A DNA stretch of 64,000 nt from positions 24,552,001 to 24,616,000 of the forward strand of contig CM022670.1 of assembly GCA_012295275.1 (NCBI GenBank), written 5' to 3'. Under the pieces are notes generated by a model. The model was not told the origin of the DNA. It searched no databases and worked only from the letters and a program-made list of their open reading frames with translations. Position numbers and translations under genes: made by a program. Source of the DNA: Chrysomallon squamiferum. Lineage: Eukaryota > Animalia > Mollusca. Below are positions 17,083 to 40,868 of the stretch, piece after piece (the stretch's first letter is position 1; each line of letters starts with the position of its first letter).

Positions 17083-17442
17083 CTTCACCACCTGAACGTG
17101 TGTCTGGGTGTTGGACTTGAGTTCTTTACTAACGGGTGCGGTCAAACGACCGTTCCTCTGGGGCGGTGCTGCTAGCTGTAACTGAGGTATATCCACACAG
17201 AACGAAACACTTTTCTGAGAACTCTGCGATCCCGAATGTCGGGCCCGGCTGTACGTCGTGGCCGTCGTCTCGGACGCGTTCGACAGCCTGGCCTTCAGTT
17301 CTTCTCTCGTAGTGAGAAGTTTTCGGTTTTCTGTCCGCTGCAGCACCGTCGGCGCAGAACGACGTCGTGGTTCACCTTTCATGCCGTTGTATCGTCGTCG
17401 GTGGCGTCTTACCATGGTGCCGGCGCGCGTTAGCATAGACAT
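17083..17442 (-). CDS. Paralogous N-terminal coding exon A (120 codons) of an unidentified minus-strand gene
   Basis: ATG 17442, MSMLTRAGTMVRRHRRR...RRRSAPTVLQR...KSVSF...HVQVVK, then AAG|GTAAGT (phase 0). GC-rich island in AT-rich DNA. Amino acids are conserved with exons B and C despite different synonymous codons. Confidence 0.88.
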
Positions 17443-17547
17443 AATGCGAACTTCTACCTGATCTCGCTGTTTTGTTTCACCACTGTTAATCTCATTGTTT
17501 GATTTACAGAAACGTATCAAATCACACTTGCCAGTCAAGTATAGCAA

Positions 17548-17555
17548 TATTTATA
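17548..17555 (-). promoter_or_regulatory. Possible TATA box for exon A
   Basis: TATAAATA on the minus strand ~105 nt upstream of the ATG. This is weak evidence in AT-rich DNA. Confidence 0.2.
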
Positions 17556-18973
17556 CAACGTCTCCGTTAAAACAAAACAAACCTAAAAAATCTCAAATTT
17601 AGAAAAAAAAAAAAAAAAAAAAACTTTAACTCACATCATCTTTCACGAACGAACGTATACGAAACATAATTTAACCAATTACTGTAACTTGTAGCTTAGA
17701 ACATCTTCTTTGTGCGACTTCATACAACACATTTCTTTTTTTTCTGTCTCTCTCTTTACTTTTTTTTTCTTCTTCTTCTTCTTCTTCTTCTTCTTCTGGT
17801 GTAAGAATACAGCGTATCTCACTTCTACGGCGCATTCGCTCGCCGACTGAGTAAATCCTTCGTATGAAAGGATTGATTAGCGCCTATCTACTTCACATAA
17901 CGAGAACCGGCAGGCCTGGTCGTGATCTGCGATGCATTTCCTGGGGTGACAAACATCGTCGTCTCAAACACAGCTGAATGGTGACTGGACGTTATAATTA
18001 GGTGAAGATACAGAGCAGGGTTAAAAAAAAAAAAAAAAGGGAAAGAAAAAAAAAAAGAAAAGACGACGTCACTGTAACGTACTTCGTTATCAGAAGAACC
18101 CGCCTAATGTGTAAGTATATAAATAGATTTCTTGACCAAGAATTCGATGACGTTGACAAAAGGGGTGACCTAAGTAATTATTGTAAACGCCCGAAACAAC
18201 AGAGAAGCAAGCGAGATAATTGATATCCTCAAATAGACGAGCCCTGCGTCACGGAATCATCTTAACCGGTCGCCATCGAAGTTCTAATGACTGTATATTA
18301 TCTGAGACTGTTTGCACAGAACAACGTACGACTTCCTTAACGAGATTTCAGTTCTGAGCGTATCTGAGCCGCGCCAGTCTACACACACACACACACACAC
18401 ACACACACACACACACACACGCGCACACACGACAGCCAGAACTCTCGCCACGGTAGCACCGCCGACATCTGAATGTCGAGTCGCTAATAATAGTGAGGTA
18501 ATTTAATTATTACGAAACTGTGACTGACAAGCGACGAGGTAGTTGAACAATAATCAAATTGGATCCGTGCTGTCTAGTGTGATGAGGTGAGGAATTGAGG
18601 AAAGTCGTCGTTTGTCTGATTTCAGCTGAGGTGGAGGTGGAGGTGAGGGGGGGGAAGGGGAGCGGGAAAACCTCTTGAGAGGAAGGAGCGGTTGTTACAT
18701 AAATAGACTGAATAAAATCTAGAGTGTAACTAACAGGTGAAGAGAAATAAAAAGATGATGATGATGATGATATTATTATTATTATTATTATTATTATTAT
18801 AAGAAATGACCGGAAATACAGTTATGGAAAGAAAATATTTTTAGGAAAGAACACAAAAGCATTTAATATTAAACATTTCGTCGAAGATTGATTTTAAATA
18901 TTATTATTTACAGATATATGTACACACACACACACAGAGATACATTAGACAGGTAGATAAACACAGAGAAAAA

Positions 18974-19137
18974 GAGAGAGAGAGAGAGAGAGAGAGAGAG
19001 AGAGAGAGAGAGAGAGAGAGAGAGAGAGAGAGAGAGAGAGAGAGAGAGAGAGAGAGAGAGAGAGAGAGAGAGAGAGAGAGAGAGAGAGAGAGAGAGAGAG
19101 AGAGAGAGAGAGAGAGAGAGAGAGAGAGAGAGAGAGA
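18974..19137. repeat. Long (GA)n microsatellite. Similar tracts at 1-90, 21179-21268, 26488-26622, 35322-35404, 37315-37379, 38549-38674, 42825-42916 and 51623-51728
   Basis: Direct inspection. Confidence 0.97.
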
Positions 19138-37200: not shown

Positions 37201-39689
37201 AAACTTGCATCCTGGTCCTAAATCAGACTGAAATAAATGAAGTCCACTGCACTGAGGGTTTAGACAGTTTTCATTGTATATGGTATATGTTCTGCCGAAT
37301 TAGACAAAAATGTGCTCTCTCTCTCTCTCTCTCTCTCTCTCTCTCTCTCTCTCTCTCTCTCTCTCTCTCTCTCTCTCTCATTTTACGTGTCTCTCTGTTA
37401 TTGGTTTAAACAGTGTGCACCGTATTTATTTGTAAATAACAACCTTGGCGGTAAAGGGAATTAATTTTCAAATTAACACCGTTCGTTCACATAGGCGGAT
37501 CGATCGCACAAAAGGTGTTGTAAGAGTTAAACACCGGCAAAACCGCGGATAGGAAATAAAATCAGAGTTCATTGTTCAGAAGCTTTTACTGTTGGTAGCG
37601 TGTTTCTCCTTTGTGAAGCTCGGTAATTAGTAAGCACACAATAATATAAGCCCATCGCGGCATTTACCATTCTATGTTTTACAGATAATTGTGTTTCCAG
37701 GTTTGAAAATCAATAGCAGTGTAATAATTAGTCGGTAATACACGCGGATGTCGTTTGTTTCTTTGCCGCACGATTTGGTACGTTGTTATTTTCACGTTCA
37801 GAAATTTGCTTCGTTTATGTTCTAGTGAGTTTTGGAGTGTTTTTCAGTTGTATAGATTGTTTTATTTAAACAGTTATTTGAATGATGTTTTGTAGTAAGA
37901 AATAAATCATTTGTTGAATGAATCAATACAAAAAAAAAAAAAAAAAATACATTTTAGAAAATGTTGATGTTAGTCTTGTACTGACAATGACACATGAATT
38001 TTAAAGAAATGCCTAAAATAAACAACAACAACAACAATAATAATCTTTTCTGTACTGATGATAATAATATCGATGATGAAACCAAAAAAAAAGCCATATT
38101 ATTTAAACATTTCAGGAACTATTTGAACTATGCCCTGGTTCTTGATCCTTTTAAAATTTGAAATTTAAAAAATAATATAACTTTGATCAATAATAACGAC
38201 TGCAATGACAAAAAAAAGAGAAGAAAAACATAAAGTTTGTTGAACAGTATAATAAGACAAGCATACATAACTGCTGATAATAACAACGGCATTAATGTTG
38301 GTTCCCTTAAGTAATCAAAGGGCTTTAACATGATTTATTTCTGAGAAATCCATTTGTAAGTATTAATAATTAAACATACAAGATTTAATTTTAAAAAAAG
38401 TTGAAAATGTTAACCACAAAATGTGGTAATAAAACTATTATTAAGTTACTGAAGAAATAAAAAAATGGAATAATCTGTGAGACTTGGTTACAACTCTGTG
38501 TTGGAGTGCGAGAGAGACAGACAGACACATTGAGAGACAGACAGATAAAGAGAGAGAGAGAGAGAGAGAGAGAGAGAGAGAGAGAGAGAGAGAGAGAGAG
38601 AGAGAGAGAGAGAGAGAGAGAGAGAGAGAGAGAGAGAGAGAGAGAGAGAGAGAGAGAGAGAGAGAGAGAGAGAGTATTAATATTAATACGTATAGAAACT
38701 GATAGCTGTTTAGCGCAGTTTAGTCATCTTTTATCAATGAAAAGAAAACAGAAATAATTGTGATTTTAAACGTTTAAATCTGTGTCCGTTTCAGTTTTGT
38801 CGATTATTGTGCAGCATTCTGCATGCCGTAATCCACTTGTAATCCGATTTATATTTATTTTATCTATTTCCTCTTCATTTCTTCGATGACAGGAATTCAC
38901 CTAGATATCACCTAGTTTTAATATGAAACTTACAGGCTATCTATCAGCTGTCAGTGTGTAATAGTAACAGCAGACCACCACCAGCAGAAGCAGCTGTAGT
39001 AATAACAGTATTAGTAATAGTTGTTTTTATTTTTGTTGTAGTTGTAATAAAAGTTAATCGTAGTCGTTATAAAACATACACAAACATACACAAACACATA
39101 CACAAATGCGGACACAGATACACGTTCACACAGACACAGATACACGTACACACAGAGACATACAAACAAGCTCAGGGGTGGAGAACGTAATACATCGACG
39201 TATTCGAAATCCTTTCTTAGACTTGTTCCTTCACAGTGATTTTGCGACAGACGTAAGTCCCCTCGTAGACCGGGCTCTTGAAAGCGCACGAGAGAAGCTA
39301 AACCAATAACGTGTAGCTATGGATCTCGTGTTAGCGGGGACTGAGCTCGTGAAAGCCGACCACTGCAAGTGATTGTCCCGTCTGTCAGGTGTTAATGAGC
39401 TAACGCGTTTCTCTCACTTACTGACAGCCTTCCTCTGTTGTCACACGTAATTTTCTGAGTGCTAGACCGGACACATTCAGCTATTAATTATTGTAATTTA
39501 GCATTTACTAGTCATTTGTAACTGTTCGTTCTATCATTACCGCTATCGACATTATTATTTTCACCATAATTATTATCATTTATAATCAGCTGCATGTACT
39601 AATTTAACGGTATTTGCATAACGTAAAGGTTTCTTTGACAGTAATTACAGCTTTAAATCTTAATCTGTTAGTAATATACTTCCCACTGC

Positions 39690-40050
39690 TACTGTTACTT
39701 TGATTGCTGCTGCTACAACAATTACCACTACAACTATTACTATTACCGTTATGGCTACAGCTATCACTATCGATGCTGCTGGTACTGCTTTTGCTATTGG
39801 TATTACTACTACTAGTATTATTACTACTGATACTAAAACGAACATTACTTCTGCTACTCTTGCTACGACTGTAACTGCAGCAGCTACTGCTACTTCTACT
39901 ACTAATGCAGTTAGCTATAATTATTTTTGTTGCTACTGCTATTGATGCTGTTACTACTACCACTACTACTACTACTACTACTACTACTACTACTACTATT
40001 GCTACTACTATGACTAATACTGTTGCTACTACTACTACTACTACTGTTGT
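39690..40050. repeat. Degenerate (ACT/GCT)n low-complexity tract. Similar tracts at 2590-2990 and 41650-41990, and GAT-rich at 45650-45910
   Basis: Trinucleotide periodicity explains the spurious poly-T/V/S/D ORFs. Confidence 0.9.
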
Positions 40051-40202
40051 CACTAAAGACACTGTCAAGTCGAAAACAAAAAAAATAAAAATACAGAAAC
40101 GCATCATTCCGTCGATTCCTTTAAAATTCATTCCGGATTTTAAAAAAGCAACAGAAATAAAGCGTTAAAGACAAACAATCAGACATTTGTTTATTCACTT
40201 AC

Positions 40203-40868
40203 CTTGATGAGGAGCACAGTCGTGTGGTTTATCGACTCGCTATCACTCAGCACCGACGGCGACGGCGTCAAATTTTGAAAACTTTGATCCCGCTGAGGTA
40301 ATTCTCCGTTCTCGTCCGTCTCCTGGATGGGTGGAGTCCGTCCCCTGCCGTGCAGGAAGATGGGAAACGAGGTTAAATCAGCTGCCGAAGACCTTCTGTC
40401 TCTGCCCACGGCGAGAGACATGGATCGCTTTTTCACCTGAGCAGGTAAGAAGTTTTTTTCGTCGTCCTGAGAAAGTGGGAAATTTGTTTCCGTTTCGACG
40501 CGAACAGACGAAACATCTTTCGCTTTGCTACCTTGAGAAGGGGGCGAGTTGCTGTCTACTTCGAGAACCGGCGGCAAATCTCTTTGTCTGCCTCGCCGCA
40601 ATTGAGGGGACGTGCCGTCGCCGACGAAAGAGAGTTTTTTCGGAGACGACGGCGGATCTGTCGTTTTCGAAGTCCCGAATAACGACGTGGACGTTTCTGA
40701 AACAATGGAGAGTCGAGCTACCTTCTCTTCCATACGAGTGAGCAGTTTAGAATTCCCCGTCCGCTGGAGAACGGTGGGGGCAGACCGCCTCCTCGTGGAG
40801 TTCTGGATACTTCCTAGACGTCTACGGTGCTTTCGCACCATAGTACCCGCTCGCGTAAACATCGACAT
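40203..40868 (-). CDS. Paralogous N-terminal coding exon C (222 codons, ~100-aa Ser/Pro-rich extension)
   Basis: ATG 40868, MSMFTRAGTMVRKHRRR...RRRSAPTVLQR...KKLSF...TTVLLIK, then AAG|GTAAGT (phase 0). The 666-nt frame is open. Confidence 0.88.

Follow-up and report, generated by a model that had tools for sequence, protein, structure and literature searches.

Three homologous exons, E1, E2 and E3, on the minus strand of the 64,000-nt stretch of Chrysomallon squamiferum DNA analysed here (the window) are likely to be duplicated N-terminal coding exons that feed one common TMEM272-like body, each probably with its own promoter. One of these exons per transcript would be spliced onto common TMEM272-like exons to the left of the window. 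Splicing of E1-E3 to a common body is very likely in this organism and, taken overall, separate promoters are likely as well. Sequence comparison identifies the exon module as the N-terminal one of a TMEM272-like gene of molluscs.

The exons, which an earlier sequence-only reading had already delineated with exact coordinates (Table 1), match one another in pairwise tblastn with E values of 1e-29 to 5e-20, and nothing in the rest of the window falls below E=1. The search for additional copies that this reading had suggested, made within the window with a profile of 26 mollusc N-termini, recovers E1-E3 alone (E 3e-21 to 1e-19; next match E=1), and no fourth copy was found. All three exons end at a phase-0 donor (GTAAGT in E1 and E3, GTGAGT in E2), as had been claimed; the sequence AAG/GTRAGT occurs three times on the minus strand of the window, each time as the donor of E1, E2 or E3, and once on the plus strand. 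The three homologous coding exons thus lie in tandem on one strand, as in a multiple-variable-first-exon gene, with a spacing of 11-12 kb.

Table 1. Features of the three variable exons (window positions)
Feature	Position	Strand	Description
E1	17083..17442	-	Variable N-terminal coding exon, 360 nt/120 aa; ATG to phase-0 GT donor
E2	27911..28279	-	Variable N-terminal coding exon, 369 nt/123 aa; ATG to phase-0 GT donor
E3	40203..40868	-	Variable N-terminal coding exon, 666 nt/222 aa, longer Ser/Pro-rich tail; phase-0 GT donor
RRRSAP in E1	17350..17367	-	Predicted PKA-type site and 14-3-3-type motif
KSVSF in E1	17200..17214	-	Matches RVxF PP1-docking consensus
RRRSAP in E2	28184..28201	-	
KSVTF in E2	28037..28051	-	RVxF consensus
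RRRSAP in E3	40776..40793	-	
Probable 5' UTR upstream of E1 ATG	17443..17573	-	Same RNA contig as E1

The sequence-only reading described this module without recognising it; a profile search, the match to abalone and a tree now identify it as a TMEM272-like N-terminal exon. The profile search covered 1.84 billion representatives. Of its 18 matches at E<=0.001, the ones that possess a C-terminal membrane region either bear the name TMEM272-like or are homologous to proteins so named. E1-E3 match the abalone protein P0020 with E values of 8e-23 to 2e-21; the closest named match is from abalone, and the window exons are nearest to the N-terminus of Haliotis rubra X1. Alignment and tree pair every window exon with a separate one-to-one orthologue from other assemblies, namely P0002 for E1 (80% over 123 aa; P0019 is a further E1 orthologue), P0003 for E2 (72% over 123 aa) and P0001 for E3 (44% over 253 aligned columns, 174 bits). 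For both P0019 and P0001 the longest contig recorded measures 886,967 bases. The pairs are supported at 100/99, 91/88 and 100/97; the branching order among the three pairs and the abalone exon within the RRRSAP clade is weak (81/68). Patella X4 matches the window exons with E values of 0.04-0.1, and Patella X5 yields no tblastn match to them. The named octopus, bivalve and chiton matches obtained in limited searches have one N-terminal type only, and one O. vulgaris model starts with unrelated sequence. A complete TMEM272-like paralogue, missed in the sequence-only reading, resides on the plus strand of the window (54103-58235).

No Pfam family scored above cut-off in E1-E3, the 18 first profile matches or the 35 aligned proteins, and none is common to more than one of these 35; Rfam gave 0 matches, the PDB gave no sequence match at E<=1, and none of 37 candidates was picked up when longer proteins were compared with E3 residues 1-70 in a word-based search. 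An Atlas search with E1 returned no usable match, and one with the abalone protein returned mollusc, nematode and arthropod clusters and a TMEM272-like rotifer cluster. A described function of TMEM272-like proteins was not found in the literature searched.

The reading of these exons as variable parts joined to a constant part is supported by annotated isoforms of relatives, limpet and abalone, all of them RefSeq automatic predictions. The Patella vulgata isoforms X2-X5 (XP_050416669, 71, 72 and 73) have 219-220 C-terminal residues in common and 83-95 unique N-terminal residues, that is, four different N-termini joined to an identical 219-aa C-terminus. Isoforms X1 and X2 share 219 C-terminal residues in Haliotis rubra and 220 in H. 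rufescens, with two isoforms per species and three N-terminal types in all; the two H. rubra proteins appear to come from one locus, judging from the identical C-terminus and from contigs of equal length. The limpet and abalone proteins belong to the same family as the window exons, with homologous N-terminal exons and the same phase-0 junction: the abalone junction falls at the same place as the window donors, after a matching hydrophobic-plus-K/Q end. Another locus (L001) contains an abalone-X1-like exon that ends in phase 0 (CAG/GTGAGT) after the same hydrophobic end.

The constant exons are absent from the minus strand of the window and so probably lie to the left of position 1, where the sequence-only reading had placed them. 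The best minus-strand matches to the constant region had E values of 13 (abalone and limpet queries) and 1.8 (P0076), in a search that detected the 38% identical plus-strand paralogue at 4e-13. With the same paralogue as control, no private downstream membrane-body exons were found on the minus strand between E1, E2 and E3, which bears out the claim that downstream exons were not duplicated along with the copies. It is accordingly very unlikely that E1-E3 are three separate genes with their own downstream exons, or that a local misassembly conceals splicing of these exons to the paralogue on the plus strand. Such an arrangement could be suspected from the sister paralogue of several molluscs (P0044, P0045, P0051 and P0052), which combines an MSMLTRKG-like start with its own membrane body, and from the presence of a TMEM272-like body on the opposite strand 13 kb from the array. 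However, the gene on the plus strand, with 223 aa, is complete, including a start of its own, and its identity to the abalone protein is only 29%. A gastropod-like constant exon is 70% identical to abalone.

Codon comparisons show E1-E3 to be old duplicates under purifying selection, in agreement with the earlier claim that residues were kept while third codon positions diverged. In the core alignment of 59-60 codons, 41-43 residues are identical between any two exons, and 21-28 of these are encoded by different codons; about 70% of the residues are kept and synonymous sites are near saturation (pS 0.64-0.89, pN 0.20-0.24). The pairwise dN/dS comparison gives dN 0.27 and dS 1.44 for E1/E2, with the other two pairs saturated. 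The flanks (1.5 kb) contain only simple repeats and matches of at most 19 nt, so the reported lack of flanking homology between the copies holds. Simple repeats abound in the window, which also includes decayed transposon-like pieces; nevertheless, the notion that the three exons are copies of a motif from a repeat or transposon is scarcely credible, being contradicted by the synonymous saturation with conserved residues, by the unrelated flanks and by the finding that the motif starts a conserved host protein, the TMEM272-like protein, across molluscs.

RNA data bear on E1 only, as reads were aligned to positions 17000-17600. A single RNA contig (run X1, depth 4.1; DNA in the library is possible) covers 17110-17573, that is, most of E1. 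The contig may reflect transcription over E1. In the junction check that had been proposed, it showed no splice junction: it terminates 27 nt before the donor of E1 is reached and has no loose end. The other two of the three runs, X3 and X4, gave no cover over E1, although this does not prove absence. A hexamer resembling a TATA box, 113 nt upstream of E1, was rejected as a core promoter because it sits inside the RNA contig.

The restriction of RNA evidence to E1 could suggest that one or two of the exons alone are spliced to the body, the others being orphans or encoding short soluble read-through peptides. The reading frames do remain open past the E1, E2 and E3 donors as far as nearby stops, and exon-only models exist in several databases (e.g., Lottia 153476 and Biomphalaria LOC106073149). 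We consider this quite unlikely given that the consensus donor and its phase are preserved in all three exons and that each has an orthologue which is intact and shares the hydrophobic-K end, whereas the post-donor tails are not conserved, differing between two members of the E1-orthologue cluster; exon-only models, moreover, would be expected of gene callers facing long introns.

The same products would result if a single promoter and a common non-coding leader preceded E1-E3 and splicing selected among them as internal, mutually exclusive first coding exons. AG sites with a pyrimidine tract are found upstream of E2 (at 106 nt) and of E3 (at 135 and 329 nt), and a T-rich tract ending in AG occurs 140 nt upstream of E1, 9 nt past the end of the RNA contig; in addition, Pomacea and Biomphalaria each have two accessions for the same related-exon protein, which fits variable UTR exons. 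However, at a window background of 0.66 such acceptors per 400 nt the upstream sites are not above chance, the E1 site failed the acceptor filter, the flanks lack a common sequence suggesting a pairing element, and the 11-12 kb spacing allows separate promoters. A single leader thus appears rather unlikely, and separate promoters remain the preferred reading.

The tail encoded by the exons is predicted to be disordered; it carries a conserved RRxSAP motif and, as a putative PP1 dock of the RVxF type, a KSVxF motif. By its consensus, RRRSAP is a predicted PKA-type site and 14-3-3-type motif; RxxSxP is found in 26 of 32 N-termini, which are kin and not independent. The RVxF pattern, scored as [RK]x0-1[VI]{P}[FW], occurs in 20 of these 32 related, non-independent N-termini, against 2.0 expected from shuffles. 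It is present and conserved in E1 and E2, in a region predicted to be disordered from the low pLDDT of the abalone model, and is missing from 12 N-termini, P0001 and E3 among them, the E3 counterpart being degenerate (KKLSF). According to PMC4794898, the short RVxF consensus is present by chance in about 25% of proteins, and KSVSF lacks the two basic residues that precede the motif in the stricter consensus. Under the proposed mechanism, the RRxSAP serine would be a PKA-type kinase site that recruits 14-3-3, and KSVxF would dock PP1; we give these predicted roles about even chances. The choice of exon would in that case determine both the tissue in which a single membrane body is expressed and its phospho-regulation. 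E3 no longer has a clean RVxF motif and has acquired about 100 additional residues.

The predicted gene product is a four-helix membrane protein with an interchangeable disordered tail, which is probably cytoplasmic. In the abalone model, residues 1-126 have low pLDDT and four long helices span 161-322; a family member would be expected to have a C-P-x-E-P / PIYL-V-GG block in its body. The predicted body is a four-helix bundle that resembles proteins of the tetraspanin, MS4A and synaptophysin kind, no more than a resemblance, with Z scores of 8-10 tied with unrelated bundles. Among the best structural matches are a dystrophin-glycoprotein complex chain (Z 10.1, rmsd 3.4, 122 aligned), Orai (9.1, 3.1, 113), PRPH2-ROM1 (8.8, 3.2, 129) and CD20 (8.7, 4.6, 137); they are 7-9% identical in sequence, equal scores are reached by soluble four-helix bundles (Z 9.2-9.3), and all matches are under the Z bar of about 13 for helical bundles. 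Foldseek gave no match at E<=0.001.

The layout is of a known kind, that of GCNT2, UGT1 and the protocadherins, and annotated isoforms of relatives already display it; this gastropod case, or a published description of the Patella and Haliotis TMEM272 isoform sets, was not found in the literature searched. The vertebrate loci GCNT2, with three variable exons, and UGT1 have tandem homologous first exons in one frame upstream of constant exons, with lineage-specific duplication, as proposed for the window exons (PMC1885805). The proteins are unrelated; there, the variable exon has a demonstrated promoter and codes for a folded domain whose length is nearly constant, whereas the window exons, with putative promoters, code for a motif-bearing tail of 120-222 aa that is predicted to be disordered. 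Clustered protocadherins and the chelicerate sDscam 5' cassettes, an invertebrate instance of the layout, also combine tandem 5' variable units with a constant region (PMC4835542). These vary an extracellular recognition domain through dozens of units, whereas here three to perhaps five exons vary a part that is probably cytoplasmic, and nothing in the window indicates stochastic choice of the protocadherin type. Three RRRSAP-type exons are present in the window, compared with one found in abalone. The likely history is that one ancestral mollusc exon expanded in gastropods and that its RRRSAP type was triplicated in this lineage.

A bolder and distinctly tentative proposal is that gastropods maintain a birth-and-death array of homologous cassettes, each with a kinase/14-3-3 site and a tunable PP1 dock, on one orphan four-helix membrane protein, such that exon choice rewires phosphoregulation per cell type. 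If true, this would be a locus of the protocadherin style in which the varied element is an intracellular switch and not a recognition domain. The array would add an invertebrate case of duplicated first exons in which the varied part is a short-motif tail rather than a folded domain, and would explain why these exons are frequently annotated as false stand-alone genes. That one and the same exon was duplicated repeatedly and retained in limpet, abalone and other snails, and three times in this lineage, points to the tail as the regulated part of the protein.

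The coordinates that the sequence-only reading assigned to the three homologous minus-strand coding exons, E1, E2 and E3, are exact. Searches of the window give mutual matches among them at E values of 1e-29 to 5e-20 and none to any other sequence below E=1. As claimed earlier, the exons have a common donor: the minus strand of the window has three AAG/GTRAGT sites, all at these exons, and the plus strand has one. Across a core of 59-60 codons, 41-43 residues are identical in each pair, and 21-28 of these are encoded by different codons; the pairwise dN/dS analysis that had been proposed gives dN 0.27 and dS 1.44 for E1/E2, with the remaining pairs saturated. 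The copies are old and under purifying selection, as previously held. The claim that flanking homology is missing likewise stands: apart from simple repeats and matches of at most 19 nt, the 1.5 kb flanks have nothing in common. Derivation of the motif from a repeat is extremely improbable.

Features of the window, with positions and strands
Feature	Position	Strand	Remarks
Variable N-terminal exon E1	17083-17442	-	120 aa; whole codons, ATG to GT donor
Variable N-terminal exon E2	27911-28279	-	123 aa; whole codons, ATG to GT donor
Variable N-terminal exon E3	40203-40868	-	222 aa; whole codons, ATG to GT donor
TMEM272-like paralogue, complete and conventional	54103-54135, 55210-55279, 56285-56398, 56773-56832, 57513-57719, 58048-58235	+	223 aa; six exons by our own reading, the first being our own choice
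Short upstream ORF	17495 to about 17454	-	begins 53 nt 5' of the E1 ATG, ends just short of it
Imperfect palindrome	12082-12482		roughly 400 bases with 73% self-complementarity; may be a MITE
Inverted pair	14239-14402 / 18771-18936		about 165 bases, 95% identity, 4.4 kb apart, flanking E1; probably a dispersed repeat; could allow pre-mRNA pairing or mark an inversion
Decayed transposase-like frame	6689-7078	+	weak Tc1-type Pfam match below cut-off, E 0.019
Decayed transposase-like frame	10493-11005	+	no Pfam match; presumably resembles a pogo/Tigger start
Diverged direct repeat	5874-6126 and 7318-7532		

The protein module, at first unrecognized, can now be placed among the N-termini of mollusc transmembrane protein 272-like (TMEM272-like) proteins. 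Of 1.84 billion representatives, a profile of the three cores matched 18 at E<=0.001. Four of these (P0007, P0008, P0013 and P0015) extend into a membrane region and, like their relatives, come from molluscs and either bear the name transmembrane protein 272-like or are uncharacterized. The nearest named match of the window exons is Haliotis rubra XP_046545961 (P0020, isoform X1; E 8e-23 to 2e-21), a similarity that points to a probable gastropod host.

The variable-exon/constant-exon model of the sequence-only reading finds its counterpart in relatives, where the isoform sets are automatic gene models. Patella vulgata isoforms X2-X5 combine four distinct N-termini of 83-95 residues with one identical C-terminus of 219-220 residues, and isoforms X1 and X2 have 219 residues in common in H. 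rubra and 220 in H. rufescens, with three N-terminal types across the two abalones. Against the window exons, Patella isoforms X2 and X3 score E 5e-5 to 3e-3 and X4 scores weakly, at E 0.04-0.1; X5, whose start can be aligned, gave no match in this search. In abalone X1 the residues just before the junction are hydrophobic and end in Q, which is where the window donors lie; the abalone-X1-like exon of locus L001 has a phase-0 end at a GTGAGT donor. Bodies of this kind carry a related RRQSAP exon in Pomacea and a different exon in Batillaria. Lottia and Biomphalaria each have one exon-only and one full model, the two being listed with contigs of equal length. Probably one variable exon per transcript is spliced to a common body, the tails differing by isoform.

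Queried with the constant regions of abalone, limpet and the homologous protein P0076, the window yields the plus-strand paralogue (54-58 kb) alone; none of the queries matches the minus strand (best E 13 for abalone and limpet, 1.8 for P0076). Hence E2 and E3 have no private bodies, in agreement with the claim that no downstream exons are duplicated between copies, and separate genes, each exon serving its own body, are highly improbable. By the same searches, over 17 kb must separate the E1 donor from the shared exons beyond it, and that region may hold additional RRGSAP-type variable exons as well; of the earlier placement of the shared exons left of position 1, absence from the minus strand of the window is borne out, and the location beyond it we infer. 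The plus-strand paralogue is 29% identical to the abalone protein, against 70% for P0076; it faces the array head to head, at a distance of 13 kb from E3.

Four sequencing runs were considered for the E1 region; X1 and X2 contain E1, and the RNA runs X3 and X4 gave no cover there. RNA run X1 provides one contig (depth 4.1; DNA in the library is possible) that covers 17110-17573, lies outside the intron and reaches 131 nt 5' of the E1 ATG; run X2, whose type is unrecorded, spans the E1 stretch in full. The RNA junctions proposed as a check were not found in the X1 contig over E1, and its cover lends weak support to expression, for E1 only. The short upstream ORF lies within the RNA-covered region, and upstream ATGs also occur 5' of E2 and E3. 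Candidate acceptors 5' of the three ATGs do not exceed the window background, so that a choice among promoters is indistinguishable here from mutually exclusive splicing downstream of a leader; the latter, with all exons served by one promoter, we consider unlikely.

Each exon has a one-to-one partner (P0002-E1, 183 bits; P0003-E2, 155 bits; P0001-E3, 174 bits), versus 82-102 bits for cross pairs. A tree of 28 of the 32 rows, excluding Lineus and three sister-paralogue proteins, supports the E1, E2 and E3 pairs at 100/99, 91/88 and 100/97, with no clear branching order among these pairs and the abalone exon. The triplication thus came before divergence from at least one further lineage, with all three copies retained; that some exons have been orphaned, E1 being the one with RNA cover, is decidedly unlikely. 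A mollusc sister paralogue and the protein from Lineus (P0043-P0045, P0048, P0051, P0052) begin with a related basic N-terminal motif, so this motif is older than the array; they lack KSVxF.

In the P0020 model (mean pLDDT 72.8), residues 1-126 are of low confidence, and there are two short helices and four long ones, the latter at 161-322; fold searches returned generic four-helix matches only, and no Pfam or PDB sequence family was found for the proteins. The variable exon would accordingly encode a predicted disordered tail, putatively cytoplasmic, as suggested by the topology and by a basic start that lacks a signal. The tails otherwise diverge but keep two short motifs: of 32 N-termini, 26 have RxxSxP, which we take to fit the consensus for PKA and for 14-3-3, and 20 have a match to the RVxF consensus (mostly KSVxF) versus 2.0 expected from shuffles, the 32 being kin, not independent, and some exon ends being cut by eye. 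The tail of the plus-strand paralogue has PPxY-type motifs instead, presumably for ubiquitin-ligase docking. E3 and its orthologue have longer tails with no clean RVxF motif. The available text of PMC4794898 describes the RVxF consensus, places KSVSF in two PP1 interactors and finds the short consensus in about 25% of proteins. Whether the tail would act as a phospho-switch with a predicted PP1 dock is, in our estimate, evenly balanced.

Among the listed matches, the titles and abstract openings on TMEM272 contain nothing on molluscs or exon layout, and the listed literature on variable-exon layouts nothing on a TMEM272-like gene. Three of five features of variable-first-exon layouts were found: tandem homologous exons, same-phase donors and no private downstream exons. 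The array is real and its layout of an already known kind, which would work like GCNT2 and UGT1. There, in the available text of PMC1885805, the variable exons stand in tandem, each has a promoter of its own, they are spliced to constant exons, and they evolve by birth and death; chelicerate sDscam, in that of PMC4835542, is an invertebrate precedent. The named octopus, bivalve and chiton matches have only one N-terminal type, which suggests an expansion of the N-terminal exons in gastropods. Most likely each transcript would have its start at one variable exon or immediately 5' of it, the donor of that exon would be spliced to the first constant exon, and the products would be isoforms with one membrane body and differing regulatory tails.
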